A DNA stretch of 64,000 bases from an uncultured Candidatus Saccharibacteria bacterium (GTDB taxonomy: Bacteria; Patescibacteriota; Minisyncoccia; Phycocordibacterales; UBA12088), in the NCBI GenBank assembly GCA_964409035.1, contig CAYPBQ010000001.1:111638-175637 (forward strand), given 5' to 3'. Below the pieces are notes generated by a model that saw only the letters and a list, made by a program, of their open reading frames with translations, made no database searches and had not been told where the DNA came from. The stretch's first letter is position 1; each line of letters begins with the position of its first letter. Positions 7,968 through 46,811 of the stretch are shown here, in pieces. The position numbers were made by a program, and so were the translations under genes.

Positions 7968-8108
7968 TTGGTGCCCTTGGCAGGATATCTCACTCCTGGG
8001 AAACCCAAGGTTTTCCCAATCCTTCCTCCACGGGGAAACAAATGTTTCCCCGACCCACTTCTGGTTCGATTCCAGCCACGCTTGAATTACTTTGTGCCCT
8101 TGGCAGGA
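7968..8108. repeat. Direct repeat of the tRNA-Arg 3' end, flanking a 108-bp three-hairpin insert
   Basis: The 15-nt sequence gtgcccttggcagga occurs at 7971-7985 and again at 8094-8108, a 17/18 match once the flanking tt is included. The second copy is the last 14 nt of the minus-strand tRNA-Arg. The sequence between them contains hairpins gggaaa/tttccc and ggggaaaca/tgtttcccc, plus a T-arm-like ctggTTCGATTCCag. Confidence 0.6.
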
Positions 8109-8166
8109 ATCGAACCTACATCTCTCCCTTAGGACGGGATTGCTCTATCCATTGAGCTACAAGGGC
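8095..8166 (-). tRNA. tRNA-Arg (anticodon CCT)
   Basis: Reverse complement is gcccttg-ta-gctc-aatggata-gagc-a-atccc-gtCCTaa-gggag-agat-gtagg-ttcgatt-cctgc-caagggc-a. U33 and A37 are present. There is one mismatch at the top of the anticodon stem. Confidence 0.8.
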
Positions 8167-16164: not shown

Positions 16165-16590
16165 TATCTCGATATCTGTGCCTATAAGCCGAATTCTGTC
16201 TATCCCTATAGATGAGTACTATATGGGAGATAGTTATGTATCTAGGAGTGTTGTTACCAACACCCTCAAGCGGCTCTCCCCACCCATCTTAATCTTTATC
16301 TATATATAGAAGACTAAGATGGATGGGGCACGGCCTTGCACGCAGGTAGGAATTTTGCCGTTTCAGCCTTGCCTCACAACAAGGTTTTCTGCATATTGCA
16401 TACGCTATATGCAGACCGCATTTCTCTCAAAATAGCGCGTCTCTGTTCGCATCCCGTGGGTCACCCCAGGCGGGCGTTACCCGCTACCATTCTCCAGCTT
16501 TCACTGAGCGTGTTCGGACTTTCCTCTCTTTGTATACTTGCGTAACAAAGAGCAACTATCCAGCACAGACCTTTTATATTATACAACACT
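16165..16590 (-). ncRNA. rnpB: RNase P RNA (bacterial type A-like)
   Basis: The minus strand carries GGAAAGUCCGAACACGCUCAGUGAAAGCUGGAGAAUGGUAGCGGGUAACGCCCGCCUGGGGUGACCCACGGGAUGCGAACAGAGACGCG, matching the P4/P5-P7 consensus of bacterial RNase P RNA. Near the 3' end (16180-16200) it carries GACAGAAUUCGGCUUAUAGG, the P4 3' strand consensus ACAGAAnCCGGCUUA. The P3 hairpin is cucuuugu...acaaagag. There is an AU-rich insertion. The ends are approximate. The + ORFs 16118..16309 and 16336..16545 are artefacts. Confidence 0.8.
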
Positions 16591-18041: not shown

Positions 18042-18128
18042 GGAGGGTTCGCATAGTGGTCGAGTGCGCCGCCTTGGAAAGGCGGTATTGGGGAAACCCA
18101 ATCGAGGGTTCGAATCCCTCACCCTCCG
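18042..18128 (+). tRNA. tRNA-Ser (anticodon GGA)
   Basis: ggagggt-tc-gcat-agtggtcga-gtgc-g-ccgcc-ttGGAaa-ggcgg-[long variable arm tattggggaaacccaatc]-gaggg-ttcgaat-ccctc-accctcc-g. The long variable arm is typical of Ser. CCA is not encoded. Confidence 0.88.
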
Positions 18129-18560
18129 CAATTTTGAACGTAGTAAAAAAGTGCGGAGGGTGAGAAAGGTACCTTCGTACCTTTCGTAGGGATTCGAAGC
18201 GCCGGAGTATATTGCGAAGCAATACGAGGCGCCGTCCTAGGAATGCGAGGTTTTTGTGAGCTGCAAGGCGAAACAAAACCCGCAATTCAGGGGACAATCC
18301 CTCACCCTCCGCAAAACAAGGAGAACAATGCGAAGTATTGGGCGACTATGTTTTGAGAGAGTGGTGAGGGATTCGCACCACAAGAGTATTTCCATGTTAC
18401 TAATTCGCCTTGCTCATAAGTAACATTGGTCAACGCCGGAGGCGGTCTACGATTTTACGAAACGAAGTGTAGTAAAATTGTCGCCGAGGCGCGACCAGCG
18501 TGCTTAGCCCGTAGGGCTTAGCAAAAGCGGGTCGAATCCCTCACCGCTCTAAGGATTTAA
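18129..18560. repeat. Degenerate direct and inverted copies of the tRNA-Ser T-arm/acceptor 3' segment in a 520-bp non-coding stretch
   Basis: Direct copy caatccctcaccctccgca at 18295-18313 against tRNA 18111-18130. Direct copy gggtcgaatccctcaccgctct at 18529-18550. Inverted copy gcggagggtgag at 18153-18164 forms a 12-bp hairpin with the tRNA 3' end. Inverted copy ggtgagggattcg at 18363-18375. Confidence 0.6.
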
Positions 18561-41836: not shown

Positions 41837-42218
41837 GGGGATGATTGGCCTCGACAGTGAGTATGTGTTGCATAGTGTGCGAGTTCGTGTGAGGTGACAC
41901 GGTAAAAACACCTCAACCAATACGTGCTACAAAACTTCGCACGGCAATTCTTTCACCTTTCCAGATGAAGGACTTTGCACTCGCTGTAGCCTAAGGCTCG
42001 CGACATCCTACAGGGCGTTGTCTGATAGCCTTGTAACGGTGTAATACCATCAGAACCGCAAGTAGAACGACGTCACTCTGCTTGCTAAATAATGACGCTA
42101 TACGGTGTTGGCTTTTGACGAATTTTCTATCAACACCACGAACCAACAAATTCGCCAAGACTTCGTAGACTCACTATGCACTCCTCTCTGGATGCGGGTT
42201 CGATTCCCGCCATCTCCA
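41837..42218 (+). ncRNA. ssrA: tmRNA (SsrA)
   Basis: The 5' GGGGAUGAUUGGCCUCGACAG... acceptor strand pairs with the 3' ...GCGGGUUCGAUUCCCGCCAUCUCCA (T-arm plus acceptor). The internal tag frame ends ...FQMKDFALAVA-UAA. It lies immediately downstream of smpB and is followed by a terminator hairpin at 42231-42255. Confidence 0.85.
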
Positions 42219-42259
42219 CAATTACAAAAACCTTCCCGCTTTCGCGGGAGTTTTTGTTT

Positions 42260-42433
42260 GTGGAGTGGAGCGAGAGAACTTCTTCTCTCGCGTCGGGAAT
42301 CGAAAGGCGCAGCGATGTTTTGTCCGCGTCCAAGCGGACAAAACCGCGAGCCTAGACGAAGCGCGCTTACTATCTTTTTGAGCGCAGCGATAGAAAGTAG
42401 TTAGCGACGCATCGTCGATCCGCCATCTCCACA
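42260..42433 (+). repeat. tmRNA-3'-end-associated structured module, copy 1
   Basis: It begins GTGGAGTGGAG, then the hairpin cgagagaacttcttctctcg, then GTCGGGAATCGAAAGGCGCAG. It contains an 11-bp hairpin gttttgtccgc-gtccaa-gcggacaaaac. It ends CGATCCGCCATCTCCACA, a degenerate copy of the tmRNA 3' end. The module ends can pair with each other. Confidence 0.6.
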
Positions 42434-42474
42434 AATTAAAACAATACCGCCCTTTGGCGGTTTTTGTTTTTACT

Positions 42475-42633
42475 GTGGAGTGGAAGACGATGCCTTCGCA
42501 TCGTCTGTCGGGAATCGAACGGCGGAGCGTTATACGTACGACTAAAAGGAGTGCGTATCGCGAGCCGCGTCCAACAACACTTAACGAATGCAATGAGTTT
42601 AGTGATTGTGGGACGATTCCCGCCATCTCCACG
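42475..42633 (+). repeat. tmRNA-3'-end-associated structured module, copy 2
   Basis: It is preceded by the terminator ccgcc-cttt-ggcgg-TTTTTGTTTTT. It begins GTGGAGTGGAAG, then the hairpin agacgatgc-cttc-gcatcgtct, then GTCGGGAATCGAACGGCGGAG. It ends GGGACGATTCCCGCCATCTCCACG. Confidence 0.6.
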
Positions 42634-42751
42634 TAATAACACTAATTCGAACTATTTGGTCGCAGAGCGACTGTTCTGTGTACTTGGTACGCGCCGAGTG
42701 CGTGGGACAGGCATACTAAGAAAAAAGGGTAATTTTTGTTATACTCTGCAC

Positions 42752-43279
42752 ATGAAATCATCGACCATCGAATCCCCTTCCTATGTTATAAGACAATTTA
42801 AGACGAGTGATGCCGAATTGTGGCAAATGTGGGATATTGATCCTGAAGTGCAGGCATTTATGCCGGAGCCGTTTAATAAACCACAAGACATTGAGGAGCA
42901 GTACGCATACATCAAAGCATGTGAAGCTGATGAAGAAGGATACTACTGGTCAATAGAAACGAGGGGTGGAGTCACGATTGGTACCATCGCGCTCACAGAA
43001 TGCAATGACTACCATGGCGTTGCTAATCTCGGTATCGTGATCGGAAATAAAAACTATTGGGGCAAAGGGGTTGCAACGGAAACCATCACTGCTCTTATCG
43101 ACTATGCATTTACAAATCTAAACCTTTTCTATATTAGCGCTGAAGTTGAGGAAGGAAATGTTCCGATGGTGAATGTTCTGGAAAAAGTCGGGTTCAGACA
43201 AGACGGTTTATTTGAATCAGCTCGGGTAAAAAATGAAAAACGAATCAATGTTCACCATTTCAGTATTGTTAAGCGATAA
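42752..43279 (+). CDS. GNAT family N-acetyltransferase (RimJ/RimL-like)
   Basis: The start is at MKSSTIESP (42752). The ORF's upstream 96 codons overlap the repeat modules and are an artefact. Motifs are IGTIALTECNDYHGVANLGIVIGNKNYWGKGVATE and FYISAEVEEGNVPMVNVLEKVGF. Confidence 0.7.
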   Translation: MKSSTIESPSYVIRQFKTSDAELWQMWDIDPEVQAFMPEPFNKPQDIEEQYAYIKACEADEEGYYWSIETRGGVTIGTIALTECNDYHGVANLGIVIGNKNYWGKGVATETITALIDYAFTNLNLFYISAEVEEGNVPMVNVLEKVGFRQDGLFESARVKNEKRINVHHFSIVKR

Positions 43280-43782
43280 TGAATAGTTATATGAAAAGCA
43301 CAAAAATAATCCCTATTAAACAACGAGACGCCAGTGCCTGCGGACCTACCAGTATTGAAATGACTCTGAAATACTTTGACGTACCACATACAGTCGCAGA
43401 TATTACTAGAGTAACTAACTATAAAAAAGAAGGTGGCATATACAACAAACAACTGGTGAGCGTGCTACAACACTATGGCCTTAAGACAAAAGTTTTGAAG
43501 AATACCTCTTGGGAACAACTGATGGAACTAAATACCAAAGATTCCGTGATAATTCTTTCTTGGATGCTTGATGGCTACATTGGACACCTTAGTGTTTTGG
43601 ATAATGTTGATAAAGACCATATCTATCTCGCGGAACCTACAACTGGAGAAATATTAAGGGTAGGTAAGATAAAGTTTCTCAGGCTCTGGTTAGACTACGA
43701 GGCTAAAGCTGAAGTACCACTGTTCCCCGAATCAAAGTCTGACATTCAACTGAGGTGGTTGTGTATCGCATCGAAACCATAA
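43279..43782 (+). CDS. Peptidase C39-like (papain-fold cysteine peptidase) domain protein
   Basis: 167 aa. The start overlaps the GNAT stop (ATGA). The putative catalytic Cys is in DASACGPTSIEM and the His in YIGHLSVLD. Confidence 0.5.
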   Translation: MNSYMKSTKIIPIKQRDASACGPTSIEMTLKYFDVPHTVADITRVTNYKKEGGIYNKQLVSVLQHYGLKTKVLKNTSWEQLMELNTKDSVIILSWMLDGYIGHLSVLDNVDKDHIYLAEPTTGEILRVGKIKFLRLWLDYEAKAEVPLFPESKSDIQLRWLCIASKP

Positions 43783-43790
43783 GCAAAGAG

Positions 43791-43823
43791 AAAACCCAAA
43801 AGCCAATGAAGGCCTTGGGTTTT
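43791..43823. terminator. Bidirectional terminator between convergent peptidase and ureohydrolase genes
   Basis: aaaacccaa-aagccaatgaaggcc-ttgggtttt. Confidence 0.65.
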
Positions 43824-43839
43824 CAAGTTGTGTCCTGGG

Positions 43840-45102
43840 TCACTTTTTCAGACTTACCCAATGCAGTACCTTCATGAGGATATGGAAGACCAGGCTGGTC
43901 GTCATATCATCACGATCGAGTGCTGGACTAAGTTCGACAACATCTATGCCGACAACCTGGTTGCGCTCGATAACCGCACGCAACAACTTCAGCAGCACCT
44001 GCGGAGTCATGCCGAGCGGTACAGGAGTACCAGTTCCAGGAGCGAAAGATGGGTCGAGCACATCAACGTCGAAGCTGATATAGCACTTCATCCCTTTTGG
44101 CAACCTAGTTGCAAGCACATTAGCCAGCTCCTCTTCGATGACGACTTGAGTTGTTGTCTGACACCTTTCTTCACCAAGAGGAGCACCGGCAAAACCACGC
44201 ACTCCAAACTGGAGCAAATGGGCTGTTGGGTTTTCATGCACCACTCGTCGCATGACGTTGCCATGATGATGCTCTGAACCAACCTCCCACTCCCCCATGT
44301 CTGTGTGCGCATCCAGATGAATGATGACTATCTCTCCATGGACTTCTGTACACGCACGAATGAGTGGCGCAGAGATTGAGTGGTCTCCCCCAATGAACAC
44401 AGGAAATGCACCGCTCCGATGTGACAATAAAGCGCCCCGATAGCAACGCTCATAGACAGTCGCTAGAGATTCCCCTGTTCGATACGCAACATTGCCCAGG
44501 TCTCCAAACGGAACTCCTTCGAGGATCACAGTCCCGAGGTCAGCGTTATGCCAACCACGGTTTCTTCTGGTAAAGATATCCCGCTCGTAAGCCAGAAATT
44601 TCGCTGAAACTTCACGGAGTCGATCCGGACCAAAGCGAGTACCCGGATTACCGGTCGCCGCCTGGTCGAGACATACTCCAGCCACAACGATTGTTCCTTC
44701 TTCGAGACTACACACATCGACTGCAGGCGAGTACACAAACTGTATTCGCGCACTAACAAATAAGGTTTCCCTATCGACAACCAGCGGCTCTTCAGCTTTT
44801 CCGTCTACTACTTCAATTAGAAAGAAAGCTTCAGCAAACGCAGCAATAATCAATAGAAATTCCTCGTACGGTTCACCCCCAGCCACTCCAAGCTCCATCG
44901 CGGCTTCATGCGTGCTTTTAACTACGCGGAAAGCTGCGAGGATCTTCAAGGACTCCTCAGTCAGAGAAAGCCGATGACCAGTCCGAGTGTTGTGTACCAC
45001 AACACAATTCTCGCCATCTTCACTTTCAAGCATGAGGTGTCTTGATACAACATACCAATCAGTACTCATGACTCTCCTCTCTTGTGCCCACAGCATGGGC
45101 AC
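43840..45102 (-). CDS. Arginase/agmatinase/formiminoglutamase-family ureohydrolase with N-terminal PqqD-like (RRE) domain; candidate peptide arginase
   Basis: Ureohydrolase metal-binding motifs GGDHSIS, HLDAHTD and SFDVDVLDP. The N-terminal ~110 aa (YVVSRHLMLESEDGENCVVVHNTRTGHRLSLTEESLKILAAFRVVKSTHEAAMELG...YEEFLLIIAAFAEAFFLIEV) follow the PqqD/RRE pattern. Confidence 0.7.
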   Translation of the reverse strand: MPMLWAQERRVMSTDWYVVSRHLMLESEDGENCVVVHNTRTGHRLSLTEESLKILAAFRVVKSTHEAAMELGVAGGEPYEEFLLIIAAFAEAFFLIEVVDGKAEEPLVVDRETLFVSARIQFVYSPAVDVCSLEEGTIVVAGVCLDQAATGNPGTRFGPDRLREVSAKFLAYERDIFTRRNRGWHNADLGTVILEGVPFGDLGNVAYRTGESLATVYERCYRGALLSHRSGAFPVFIGGDHSISAPLIRACTEVHGEIVIIHLDAHTDMGEWEVGSEHHHGNVMRRVVHENPTAHLLQFGVRGFAGAPLGEERCQTTTQVVIEEELANVLATRLPKGMKCYISFDVDVLDPSFAPGTGTPVPLGMTPQVLLKLLRAVIERNQVVGIDVVELSPALDRDDMTTSLVFHILMKVLHWVSLKK

Positions 45103-46175
45103 ATGTGCCGTTTCCTGAATTTGCGGAAGTTGATATCGTAGGTACGAAAATCCAACTCCGCAACCTTATTAGTCATCGTTGGTTTCGAGAAACCAGTAAT
45201 GACCTTCACCACATCCAATACATGATAGTTTGCGGTGATCGCACTAATGGCAGCGATATTTCCACCTTTAATGTGCGTATTAGTAACTGTCAATTGCTGA
45301 TACTCAGCTCGATGAAGCTGTTTATCAAGTGCGTGCTCATAACAGTACCAACACGCTGATTCTCCAGGAATGACCGTTGGTCCGATAAAGCTTAAGTGTC
45401 CATCATACCCTCCGCAGAGAATGTGAGGCACTTGTAGCTCAAAACCAACTTCCGTGACAATCCGATTAACCACATCTGTACTCGGATCATCCGCACAGGA
45501 GATAATCAAACTGCTACCTCGCATCCCAACAAGGCAGTCTTGTGGGGACACAACTTGCCGTGCAACACCCTGGACTGAGATTCCAGCATCAATGGCACGG
45601 AGTTTTCGTTCTGCCACTTGAACCTTTAGGGATCCGACGTCATCAACATTGAACAAACACTGTCTGTTCAAGTTTGATATTTCCACCACGTCTGGATCGA
45701 TGAATGTAAAGTTACGGACACCAGCTAGGGCAAGACCTTGGGCAACCCAAGTACCAATCCCTCCCAAACCGATTATCGCAACCCGCGCTATATGTAAACG
45801 CTCTTGCATTGCTTCGCGGGATTGGGTTCTTGTCTCAAACTCCGCAAAGAAATTGCGCTGGGTTACAAATTTATCCTGGCAAATAACGGTAGGATGCTTT
45901 TTGGTAGCCAGTATCCGACTCTTTTGGAGTATTGATACCAGTCGCCGGACTTCTATTATTGGGAGGCCTGCTTTCCTTGCTATCTCTTCGATTGGATGCA
46001 AACCATCAAAATATTGCAAGCAACCAAAAGCCTCTTTGTTAAGTTGGAACGGCAGGACAACACTACTTGCATTGAAGAGAAAGTTCACTTCATAGACATC
46101 TCGTACACTTCTGTACAAGACAGAGATACTGTCTTTGATCTGTGGAAACACTGCGTGGACTCCTTTCATAGGCAT
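45066..46175 (-). CDS. ThiF/MoeB/E1-like adenylating enzyme with N-terminal PqqD-like (RRE) domain (MccB-like architecture)
   Basis: Rossmann motif VAIIGLGGIGTWVAQGLALAGVRNFTFIDPDVVEISNLNRQ. Zn-binding CxxC pairs (CWYC...CPCC). The N-terminal ~110 aa (VLPFQLNKEAFGCLQYFDGLHPIEEIARKAGLPIIEVRRLVSILQKSRIL) closely match the PqqD/RRE consensus. It overlaps the ureohydrolase gene by 37 nt. Confidence 0.75.
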   Translation of the reverse strand: MPMKGVHAVFPQIKDSISVLYRSVRDVYEVNFLFNASSVVLPFQLNKEAFGCLQYFDGLHPIEEIARKAGLPIIEVRRLVSILQKSRILATKKHPTVICQDKFVTQRNFFAEFETRTQSREAMQERLHIARVAIIGLGGIGTWVAQGLALAGVRNFTFIDPDVVEISNLNRQCLFNVDDVGSLKVQVAERKLRAIDAGISVQGVARQVVSPQDCLVGMRGSSLIISCADDPSTDVVNRIVTEVGFELQVPHILCGGYDGHLSFIGPTVIPGESACWYCYEHALDKQLHRAEYQQLTVTNTHIKGGNIAAISAITANYHVLDVVKVITGFSKPTMTNKVAELDFRTYDINFRKFRKRHMCPCCGHKRGES

Positions 46176-46240
46176 TCCGAACCCTTCTGTACAAGACAGG
46201 GATACTGTCTTTAGCCTGTGGAAACACTGCGTGGACTCCT
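46108..46240. repeat. 57-bp tandem direct repeat (period 76 bp) duplicating the E1-like gene 5' end into its upstream region
   Basis: Copy A is at 46108-46164, inside the codons for MPMKGVHAVFPQIKDSISVLY. Copy B is at 46184-46240. They differ at 4 of 57 positions. Copy B is out of frame and lacks an ATG. Confidence 0.8.
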
Positions 46241-46264
46241 ATTGTTAATTTCAAAAAACAAGAA

Positions 46265-46552
46265 GTGATTCTATGCGAAAAGTACTACACATCGGAGTCA
46301 TGTCAAGGCAAGCTACTGGAGATTGACACAAAAGAGAATAGCCACTACTCTTCTAATAAACAAGTGGATAGGCTGCTTGTTCCCAACCCGCATACGGAGA
46401 ATCCTATGCAAAAGAGCGTTCTGTCGACCGACTCAACTCCCCAAGGCAATCCGGCAGCCACCGTAGTCGATCTGCGGAAAGTGAGCATCAAGTCGTTGCC
46501 GCGTCGTCACAGCGATGTCTACATGCGGGGACTGCGACGTCCGCGCGCTTAA
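46265..46552 (+). CDS. Hypothetical small protein (GTG start; candidate RiPP precursor, speculative)
   Basis: 95 aa, divergent from the E1-like gene. The C-terminus is Arg-rich (...SLPRRHSDVYMRGLRRPRA). It is followed 14 nt later by a strong +-oriented terminator. Internal Met codons would allow a shorter peptide. Confidence 0.3.
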   Translation: MILCEKYYTSESCQGKLLEIDTKENSHYSSNKQVDRLLVPNPHTENPMQKSVLSTDSTPQGNPAATVVDLRKVSIKSLPRRHSDVYMRGLRRPRA

Positions 46553-46565
46553 TCGGACGACGGCC

Positions 46566-46605
46566 ATTGCCTGGGACGGAGACCACAACGTGTGGTTTCC
46601 GTCCC
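46566..46605 (+). terminator. Strong nested-hairpin intrinsic terminator
   Basis: gggacgga-gaccaca-acg-tgtggtt-tccgtccc followed by tttttcacttt. The U-tract is only on the + strand. Confidence 0.7.
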
Positions 46606-46638
46606 TTTTTCACTTTCCCTTCGGGCGCTTTTTGTTTT

Positions 46639-46811
46639 GTGGAGTGGAGCGAGCAAACTGCTTTGCTCGCGTCGGGCATCGAAAGGCGCAGGCATATCGC
46701 GAAGCGATGCCGAGCCGTGGTCAAGAGTGCTTAGTATTTTTAGAGCAACGCGAATAAAAATAGTTAGCAACTAGTGACCGATTCCCATAAGACGATTCCC
46801 GCCACCTCAAG
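46639..46811 (+). repeat. tmRNA-3'-end-associated structured module, copy 3 (4.4 kb from copies 1 and 2)
   Basis: GTGGAGTGGAG, then the hairpin cgagcaaactgctttgctcg, which has compensatory changes relative to copy 1's cgagagaacttcttctctcg, then GTCGGGCATCGAAAGGCGCAGG. The interior is homologous to copy 1 (tatttttagagcaacgcgaataaaaatagttagcaac against tatctttttgagcgcagcgatagaaagtagttagcgac). It ends cgattcccataagacgattcccgccacctcaag, a degenerate tmRNA 3' end. Confidence 0.6.

Follow-up and report, generated by a model that had tools for sequence, protein, structure and literature searches.

A family of structured non-coding modules behind the tmRNA and tRNA genes of candidate phyla radiation bacteria, possibly small insertion cassettes

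We analysed 64,000 nucleotides (64 kb) from an uncultured Candidatus Saccharibacteria bacterium (assembly GCA_964409035.1, contig CAYPBQ010000001.1, positions 111,638 to 175,637 of the forward strand; hereafter the window), in which the 3' end of the transfer-messenger RNA (tmRNA) gene, ssrA, recurs downstream of the gene. Each copy closes a folded module of about 200 nt, and modules with the same arm layout stand behind two tRNA genes of the same window. The three modules behind the tmRNA gene (M1, M2 and M3), the two behind tRNA-Ser (S1 and S2) and the one behind tRNA-Arg belong to one family of units of about 110-215 nt, which among the loci examined is confined to candidate-phyla-radiation (CPR) bacteria. 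The units stack head to tail, their arrays can bracket cargo genes, and the changes in their cores are compensatory. With moderate confidence, we read them as small insertion cassettes that code for nothing and enter tRNA and tmRNA genes at the T-loop; their structured core would be active as a single strand, and their catalyst would act in trans.

Modules downstream of ssrA and of two tRNA genes

The ssrA gene lies immediately 3' of smpB and does not encode CCA; its last ~20 nt, from the T-loop to the discriminator, are the sequence that is reiterated downstream (Table 1). The 19-mer CGATTCCCGCCATCTCCAC occurs exactly in ssrA (42201-42219) and at the end of M2 (42614-42632, 19/19 identical), and with three mismatches at 46793-46811; no such occurrence was expected from shuffled sequences. 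The copy at the end of M1 (42417-42432) has two 1-nt deletions, which are also found in the close relative L001. The initial annotation had described such copies, each terminating a homologous module of ~175 nt preceded by a terminator. The copies and the homology of the modules were confirmed, as GTGGAGTGGAG (at 42260, at 42475 with one mismatch, and at 46639) and GTCGGGAATCGAA (at 42292, at 42507, and at 46671 with one mismatch) recur in all three. The length was an underestimate: counted between the ends of successive gene-end copies, M1 spans 213 nt and M2 200 nt, and M3 takes up about 195 nt, truncated hairpin and terminal copy included. Terminator-like hairpins with a T-tract do stand upstream of M1 (42233-42250) and M2 (42446-42461), whereas M3 has a truncated hairpin only.

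The layout common to M1, M2 and M3 runs from GTGGAGTGGAG through a 9-bp hairpin (P2) to GTCGGGAATCGAA, which make up the 5' arm (IR-L), then through two more hairpins (P3 and P4, the core) to the copy of the ssrA end (the 3' arm, or IR-R). The P2 hairpin has the three compensatory versions reported earlier, gcgagagaa/cttc/ttctctcgc in M1, agacgatgc/cttc/gcatcgtct in M2 (42485-42506) and gcgagcaaa/ctgc/tttgctcgc in M3 (46649-46670). In M1, GTGGAGTGGAG is the complement of the acceptor 3' strand and GTCGGGAATCGAA that of the T-stem 3' strand plus the T-loop, and the terminator with its A-tract lengthens the palindrome built from the ssrA end and the 5' arm. The internal loop of M1 reads GCAG/CGAG, against a family consensus of GGAG/CGAG. 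The core of M3 ends with GTGACC (46774-46779), followed by a partial copy GATTCCCA at 46780-46787 and the degenerate IR-R CGATTCCCGCCACCTCAAG at 46793-46811. Relative to shuffled sequence, the folds of M1, M2 and M3 had z scores of -8.1, -7.4 and -3.2. A covariance model, in whose seed all three were included, gave them 62.4 (42292-42426), 70.1 and 67.6 bits, respectively.

A search with the complement of the T-arm also matched regions just 3' of tRNA-Arg and tRNA-Ser; the phenomenon thus extends well beyond the coordinates given in the initial annotation. The modules found there have the ssrA-type arm layout, with the arms rebuilt on the 3' end of their own gene. In S1, GTGCGGAGGGTGAG is the complement of the acceptor 3' strand of tRNA-Ser and the IR-R AATCCCTCACCCTCCGC is identical to the end of tRNA-Ser; the fold had a z score of -8.9 and the covariance model matched with 28.3 bits. 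S2, whose P3 has the form GCCGGAG..CGAGGCG, gave a weak match to the model (18425-18543, 11.5 bits, E 0.36). The type 3 module behind tRNA-Arg has another core than M1-M3 within the same arm layout, and is homologous to the module behind the tmRNA of L013; its IR-R carries CCA, which the tRNA-Arg gene itself lacks. No open reading frame (ORF) is present inside M1, M2, S1 or S2. The tRNA-Phe gene of the window has no module, which leaves six modules behind three of the four tRNA-type genes in 64 kb, despite the very small genomes of CPR bacteria. An RNase P RNA gene (class A, 137 bits; 16169-16571, minus strand) lies ~1.5 kb from the module-bearing tRNA-Ser gene.

Table 1. Genes, modules and cargo located in the window
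Feature	Position	Strand	Basis or details
tmRNA (ssrA) gene	41837-42219 (alternative end 42221)	+	ARAGORN; Rfam RF00023, 92.1 bits
Bidirectional terminator hairpin and T-tract, start of unit M1	42233-42259 (hairpin 42233-42250)	+	
M1 5' arm (IR-L)	42260-42304	+	GTGGAGTGGAG 42260-42270; P2 42270-42291; GTCGGGAATCGAA 42292-42304
M1 core	42305-42416	+	P3 = GGC..GCC with hairpin; P4 = long hairpin
M1 terminal copy (IR-R) of ssrA end, GATCCGCCATCTCCAC	42417-42432	+	two 1-nt deletions (GAT-CC-GCC)
Unit M2	42433-42632	+	bidirectional terminator 42446-42461; IR-L 42475-42485 and 42507-42519; core to 42613
Unit M3	46618-46811	+	truncated hairpin and T-tract; IR-L 46639-46649 and 46671-46683
tRNA-Ser(GGA) gene	18042-18129	+	ARAGORN/Rfam; 3' end is the template for S1 and S2 arms
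Module S1	18151-18312	+	IR-L GTGCGGAGGGTGAG 18151-18164; P2 18165-18185; GTAGGGATTCGAA 18186-18198; P3/P4 core; IR-R 18296-18312
Module S2, degenerate, second behind tRNA-Ser	18357-18553	+	partial IR-L GGTGAGGGATTCG; decayed IR-R GAATCCCTCACCGCTCTAAG
tRNA-Arg(CCT) gene	8094-8166	-	ARAGORN/Rfam
Type 3 module behind tRNA-Arg	7969-8079	-	IR-L GTGGCTGGAATCGAACC 8079-8063; two hairpins; IR-R ATCCTGCCAAGGGCACCA 7986-7969
Cargo between M2 terminal copy and M3	42633-46605	both	Pfam
GNAT acetyltransferase	42752-43279	+	Pfam
C39 peptidase	43279-43782	+	Pfam
Arginase-family protein, N-terminal extension	43840-45102	-	Pfam
ThiF-family protein	45066-46175	-	Pfam
Small ORF, ending in RRHSDVYMRGLRRPRA	to 46552	+	

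Fold, covariation and distribution of the family

Across the family, a unit consists of the gene 3' end from the T-loop on, often a terminator, the 5' arm, the folded core and the second gene-end copy, in that order. The 5' arm is the Watson-Crick complement of tRNA positions 54 to ~74, in keeping with the earlier description of it as an inverse of the gene end, and is sometimes split by P2, a conserved hairpin that about half of the modules have, placed exactly at the acceptor/T-stem junction. At all seven informative acceptor positions, among them G3:U70 in two tRNA-Ala genes and C1:A72 in a tRNA-Met of the initiator type, this arm complements the 3' strand and is not a copy of the tRNA 5' strand. 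P3 follows the motif GAAAG; above its base of 3 bp lie a GGAG/CGAG internal loop, compatible with tandem G.A pairs, and a variable hairpin. Next are GGG, P4 with its GGUC/GACC base followed by a conserved G.U pair, and the 3' arm, a copy of tRNA positions 56 to 73. P3 and P4 are arranged around a three-way junction, and the motifs GAAAG, GGAG/CGAG and GGGGUCG are conserved and unpaired. At least three unrelated core types share this one arm layout, which points to a common mode of insertion or processing and not to one ancestral RNA.

Selection on RNA structure had been proposed from the three P2 versions; with more homologs, covariation in the family was strong. In alignment A2 (34 sequences), 93.3% of the cells were paired, compared with 72.0% after shuffling, and covariation was 0.607 against 0.211 in shuffled and 0.08-0.12 in slid controls. 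The corresponding values for alignment A3 (130 sequences, fitted to the covariance model) were 91.5% and 68.0%, 0.572 and 0.181, and 0.05-0.09. None of 500 shuffles scored as high as the observed data in either alignment. One base pair of P3 occurs as CG 51 times, AU 38 times, GC 29 times and UA seven times. G.U pairs outnumber A.C in P3 (18:3), in P4 (45:12, besides the G.U conserved in 110 of 116 cells) and, weakly, in the closing helix (71:45), suggesting that it is the tRNA-sense strand in which the fold is read, either as RNA or as single-stranded DNA (ssDNA) of the top strand. The modules thus combine covariation above both kinds of control with a strand-specific tolerance of G.U, as structured non-coding RNAs do. 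The initial annotation had also suggested that M1 and M2 are empty islets; the conserved three-way-junction core, its strong covariation and its conserved unpaired bases show that they are not debris.

Among the 82 modules adjacent to tRNA genes, 49 spacers could be scored; 26 contained a terminator-like hairpin and T-run, and 23 had no T-run. Transcription of the modules may involve read-through at some loci and be blocked at others. At many loci, the gene end, an A-tract, the hairpin, the T-tract and the 5' arm form a single continuous palindrome, and exact tandem duplications were seen in L206, L209 and L230.

The comparison loci came from two scans. A scan of genome contigs based on smpB placed the source organism among the Patescibacteria (CPR) and yielded 80 loci, in which the tRNA and tmRNA 3' ends were scored against the 600 nt downstream; inverted and direct copies were found behind many CPR genes, and no such copies in the upstream control regions. 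A metagenome scan with the pattern GAAAGNCGGAR..GAGNCRGGGTCG, of which only the initial GAA derives from the T-loop complement, added at least 120 loci. Among the 121 matches listed, about 96 had a tRNA or tmRNA gene on the same strand no more than ~300 nt upstream, mostly at 20-90 nt, and at least 39 anticodon types plus tmRNA were covered. The covariance model gave 33 matches in the smpB loci, all in CPR-labelled loci and on the strand of the adjacent gene, and 130 matches across 100 metagenome loci, where a single locus had as many as five. The presence of modules is sporadic, since only 19 of ~60 CPR-labelled tmRNA loci have them. With Rfam 15 at the gathering threshold, ribozyme, group I intron and tRNA-like families included, only tmRNA, tRNAs and RNase P passed in the window, and nothing credible appeared at 42200-42700 with E values up to 10. 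A scan of IMG/VR with two core motifs and the full core pattern returned only chance matches in coding sequence, and M1 plus M2 had no blastn match among the INPHARED phages or PLSDB plasmids. Our literature search found no description of such modules; it led to papers on TIGR-Tas, on group I introns in the anticodon loops of Patescibacteria and, for islands, to the standard ones. The family is large and abundant in CPR metagenomes, and looks undescribed.

Proposed insertion at tRNA gene ends and competing explanations

Several observations point to insertion. Direct repeats extend from about tRNA position 56 to the gene end, with a modal length of 18 nt, and the terminal copy has 0-2 mismatches with its own tRNA in 46 of the 82 tRNA-adjacent modules, compared with 1% in mismatched pairings. 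This copy is decayed or lost in ~40% of the modules, and the most decayed copies are the outermost ones (M3, L004, L028). Where the gene copy and the terminal copy are unlike, the 5' arm agrees with the live gene at 49 positions and with the terminal copy at three, which fits an incoming unit bearing a new gene end and its complement, with the old end displaced downstream. The earlier proposal that each module can close on itself is accordingly right only in part, since wherever the copies disagree that arm keeps to the live gene. Empty and filled sites could also be compared. L005 and L008, which are empty, have the tmRNA, its native terminator and the downstream gene; L021 has ~450 nt more, and this insert starts with a fresh tmRNA end and terminator and finishes with CCTGACC. 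Past it lie the old 3' end, now degenerate, a terminator of the native type and the downstream gene that L005 and L008 also have.

Stacking and exchange were equally apparent. Unlike modules are stacked behind one gene in the window (M1 and M2), in L035 (three modules) and in L220 (types 1 and 3). Between L001 and the window, the flanks are ~79% identical, M2 ~96% and the 3.5-kb cargo 94.9%, so the movement or exchange of modules and cargo was independent of the genome around them. The first-position module of L001, which occupies another array position than M3, has 95.4% identity with it. M1, at the same array position as this L001 module, is much more diverged from it (roughly two-thirds identical, judged by eye), although both share the same deleted terminal copy. 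Two further loci appear to bracket cargo. In L298, tRNA-Tyr is followed by 5.3 kb including a large serine recombinase gene, a module and an 18/18 gene-end copy; in L258, 1.1 kb of cargo precedes a module with an 18/18 terminal copy.

If the modules are insertion cassettes, each unit would arrive by an insertion that splits the gene in the T-loop and supplies a replacement 3' end, often with a terminator, so that the gene would stay intact. The old 3' end would be displaced downstream and decay there as a repeat. The core and the complementary arm would form the cis-acting site of the element, with the core acting as a single strand, more probably RNA than folded DNA. Pairing of the arm with the gene-end copy would show the target as a duplex, as do integron attC and the attP hairpin of CTX phage. 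The catalyst would be provided in trans, and the genes near tRNA ends in related loci make large serine recombinases and small GIY-YIG endonucleases candidates. Serial integration at ssrA had been the initial interpretation, and insertion at the gene 3' end is a reasonable part of it; integrase islands are not the best fit, given the same layout at no fewer than 39 tRNA types.

The modules resemble tRNA/tmRNA islands of the Islander type in that the gene is split, its 3' part comes from incoming DNA and the displaced fragment lies at the far end, and also in their tandem arrays at one gene and a repeat that begins in the T-loop. The target gene is regenerated and its displaced 3' fragment is the far-end direct repeat. 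Unlike such islands, they are ~200 nt long, non-coding and integrase-free, have a covarying fold and an inverted target copy, and occupy essentially all tRNA types within one bacterial lineage; the integrase gene expected inside an island is missing, with a serine recombinase in L298 only. With integron attC and the ssDNA attP of CTX phage, they share structure over sequence, imperfect inverted repeats whose single strand folds and displays the target as a duplex, as well as cassette arrays with the folded site at the cassette 3' end, and empty or non-coding cassettes exist there too. A structure-conserved, folding imperfect inverted repeat in arrayed cassettes is thus found here as in attC. 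Unlike attC, the arms are tailored to each tRNA, the GTTRRRY core (R box) is absent, no link to IntI or Xer was seen, and neither an adjacent intI/attI platform nor an integrase stands beside the arrays. The conserved unpaired motifs and the G.U pair, which set the modules apart from attC and CTX attP, suggest RNA.

An unlikely possibility is that the modules are self-contained, nucleic-acid-guided targeting devices, whose arms read both strands of 18-20 bp at the tRNA-gene 3' end and whose core recruits a trans-acting inserting or homing enzyme. The sense strand would be the pairing partner of the 5' arm, and the antisense strand that of the 3' arm. Re-templating of the arms at every new tRNA would account for the near-identical cores that accompany different tRNA types; such a device would be programmable and protein-free, and would be spreading in CPR genomes. 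IS110 bridge RNA, IS200/IS605 omega RNA and TIGR-Tas (PMC12045711) likewise have a structured scaffold flanked by target-matching segments. In omega RNA, the guide is copied from the local flank and differs per locus. TIGR-Tas is found in CPR bacteria and can read either strand of DNA (PMC12045711). The modules differ from these guide-RNA systems in their 18-20 nt arms, their layout and the lack of a known cleavage or recombination activity. No adjacent gene for a DEDD recombinase, TnpB/IscB or a Nop-domain Tas protein was detected with Pfam in 93 downstream neighbours or in the cargo and flanks of the window.

A host-serving small RNA, linked to the tRNA and with a cellular role, is the main rival, and we give it modest weight. 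It would be transcribed from the tRNA promoter, like the dicistronic tRNA-snoRNA genes of plants, and released by tRNA-processing enzymes, its closing helix would mimic the acceptor/T-stem stack, its role could be, for example, tRNA 3'-end maturation, quality control or that of a decoy, and its copies would arise by local duplication of the tRNA end. The modules always lie on the tRNA strand, 10-75 nt behind the gene, and they lack a linked mobility gene. In dicistronic tRNA-snoRNA genes, too, a small RNA directly follows the tRNA on its strand. The scorable spacers devoid of a T-run, the strong covariation, the conserved G.U pair and the internal loop suited to tandem G.A pairs all agree with such an RNA. 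P2 emerges exactly at the acceptor/T-stem junction, like a tRNA body, and an acceptor/T-like helix could recruit RNase P, RNase Z and the CCA-adding enzyme, as in mascRNA and viral tRNA-like structures. While the geometry and the position of P2 fit such a minihelix, the perfect complement continues through and past the discriminator, identity elements such as G3:U70 are lost, there is no T-loop, and the 3' arm is so often decayed that the closing helix would frequently be missing. A terminator-like hairpin with a T-run separates tRNA and module in the other 26 of the 49 spacers. The sporadic presence at orthologous tmRNA loci, the two to five unlike modules stacked per gene, the three unrelated cores with one arm layout and the 95% identity of M3 to a module in another genome with flanks at 79% also speak against a host function.

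We doubt that decayed integrase-bearing islands, serially integrated at ssrA and reduced to attL/attR scars and leftovers, account for the modules. Direct repeats of the gene end that start in the T-loop are a classic mark of tRNA/tmRNA islands (PMC4383910). The outer copies are more degraded, serine recombinase genes abut tRNA/tmRNA ends in L002, L003, L039, L271 and L298, and the island of L298 terminates in a module. Random decay would not, however, yield a uniform covarying unit of 110-215 nt at 39 or more tRNA types. The cargo of the window has no integrase remnants, recombinases are not enriched near modules, and the viral, phage and plasmid collections, where attP forms would be expected, lack the module. 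To our knowledge, no attP of a tyrosine or serine integrase has a 20-nt inverted target copy ~100 structured nt away from the core site, which we also count against decayed islands.

Two more explanations have very little in their favour. A functionless by-product, formed by template switching at the terminator hairpin and unequal crossing-over around a neutral spacer, appears highly improbable. The continuous palindrome from gene end through 5' arm at many loci and the exact tandem duplications (L206, L209, L230) would agree with it, and quasi-palindrome correction could hold the 5' arm matched to the gene. It leaves the P3/P4 core, the covariation and the unpaired motifs unaccounted for, and the same cores recur at many tRNA types and in many genomes. 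For the core, it is already contradicted, and it could survive only as the upkeep of the match between 5' arm and gene. We give even less credence to a non-autonomous transposon similar to a miniature inverted-repeat transposable element (MITE), mobilised by a transposase that recognises terminal inverted repeats. The small size, the lack of ORFs, the inverted termini and the many copies recall a MITE, whose terminal inverted repeats are common to all copies, but the termini of the modules differ in each copy and equal the local tRNA end. Insertions are found only at tRNA/tmRNA 3' ends and in one orientation, there is no associated transposase, and no copies with identical termini were seen away from tRNA genes. 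The initial annotation had offered a small-RNA or MITE-like family as an alternative to integration; this was nearer the truth than its preferred reading, except that terminal repeats which change from tRNA to tRNA exclude a classical MITE. A group I or T-loop intron was discarded as well (the unit is too small, has no Rfam match, and the upstream gene copy is already intact), as was a primer-binding-site-like complement of mature tRNA, since the 5' arm fits the genomic end and not the CCA end.

A number of results weigh against the insertion cassettes that we favour. Cores that follow different tRNAs, and whose spacers, P2 hairpins and arms are unrelated, are 91-96% identical, which suggests that the conserved unit is the core alone, or that gene conversion homogenises the cores. 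The near-identity could reflect either arms re-templated when cores move or gene conversion of cores within a genome. Three contigs of the same species from other samples, retrieved by exact-protein look-up, have the same modules and no polymorphism, and excised or circular forms were not seen. The modules have no linked recombinase, reverse transcriptase or transposase, and the nearest downstream genes of 93 modules, classified with Pfam, are housekeeping genes with no excess of recombinases. The bracket cases (L298 and L258) are ambiguous, as the module could have been there first, with an independent island entering later between it and the tRNA. Modules whose spacer has no T-run (23 of 49) may be co-transcribed with the tRNA, and the unpaired motifs GAAAG, GGAG/CGAG and GGGGUCG would also fit an RNA that binds a trans-factor and has a cellular role. 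The strand asymmetry is narrow, resting largely on two P4 columns and P3. As for data quality, the comparison loci are all metagenome assemblies, and the fitting of A3 to the covariance model belongs here too.

If the modules are insertion cassettes, tRNA genes would be open to colonisation by minimal non-coding elements that repair their own target, and the bracketing of cargo such as the RiPP-like cluster of the window would be a route of gene flow in a lineage about whose mobile elements little is known. Should the core be a guide or recognition RNA, a protein-free member would be added to the RNA-guided mobile systems, with rules that could be read from hundreds of natural arm-target pairs. 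Assemblies are likely to break at the duplicated tRNA ends and palindromes, which can also mislead tRNA-based island finders in CPR genomes. Two same-species contigs (L327 and L328) end inside or beside the M2-M3 cargo, where the repeated modules may have fragmented the assemblies.

Some terminal copies have N73-CCA next to a live gene with N73-C-A only, namely at 7969-7986 of the window (minus strand) and in L253, L249, L256, L264 and L019. Such copies would come either from a displaced ancestral gene that encoded CCA or by way of a mature RNA. We did not retain the CCA-bearing copies as a sign of an RNA intermediate, since the seven cases noticed, judged by eye, look no more frequent than CCA-encoding genes are among the tRNA genes of CPR.

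Candidate enzymes, cargo and neighbouring sequences

Large serine recombinase genes were found at 8876-10480 of L002, 8759-10240 of L003, 8820-10337 of L039, 114-1496 of L271 and 4303-5832 of L298. All five point toward the tRNA or tmRNA, with their 3' ends touching the 3' end of that gene, and a module is present at one of the five loci (L298). Integration into tRNA genes is not usually the work of serine integrases. Small GIY-YIG-like ORFs (74-98 aa), assigned with jackhmmer starting from the ORF of L021, are frequent near smpB and ssrA; they lie by CPR tmRNA genes in L018 (3260-3520), L041 (8453-8719), L042 (8466-8741), L046 (8247-8504), L010 (1573-1869), L021 (9048-9287), L061 (9222-9446) and L033 (8764-9048). 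Five of these ORFs are located just 3' of smpB, three of them between smpB and ssrA; ARAGORN predicted no tmRNA in L010 and L018. A search for ORFs inside P4 pointed to L021 only, with its GIY-YIG ORF in the insert behind the tmRNA.

Two other sequences near tmRNA genes stood out. In L036 (8912-8970), 30 nt of the tmRNA 3' end, with the complete T-arm, recur as a perfect inverted copy 35 nt past the gene and near the contig end; this may be a convergent tRNA-like gene or an assembly fold-back. In L016 (3249-3400) and L021 (8882-9000), the palindromic sequences GAAGTGCATGCAC/GTGCGTGCAC are repeated directly behind the tmRNA and are unlike all three cores.

The cargo between M2 and M3 (Table 1) resembles a peptide-modification cluster, similar to those for ribosomally synthesized and post-translationally modified peptides (RiPP-like); Pfam revealed no recombinase in it. 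Its 94.9% identity to the cargo of L001, with the flanks at ~79%, indicates a recent exchange. Two tandem direct repeats of 76 nt, 88% identical, occupy 46089-46240 between the ThiF-family gene and the small ORF. Each holds the palindrome ACAAGACAG.GATACTGTCTTT, which looks like a paired operator, and the same repeats are present in L001.

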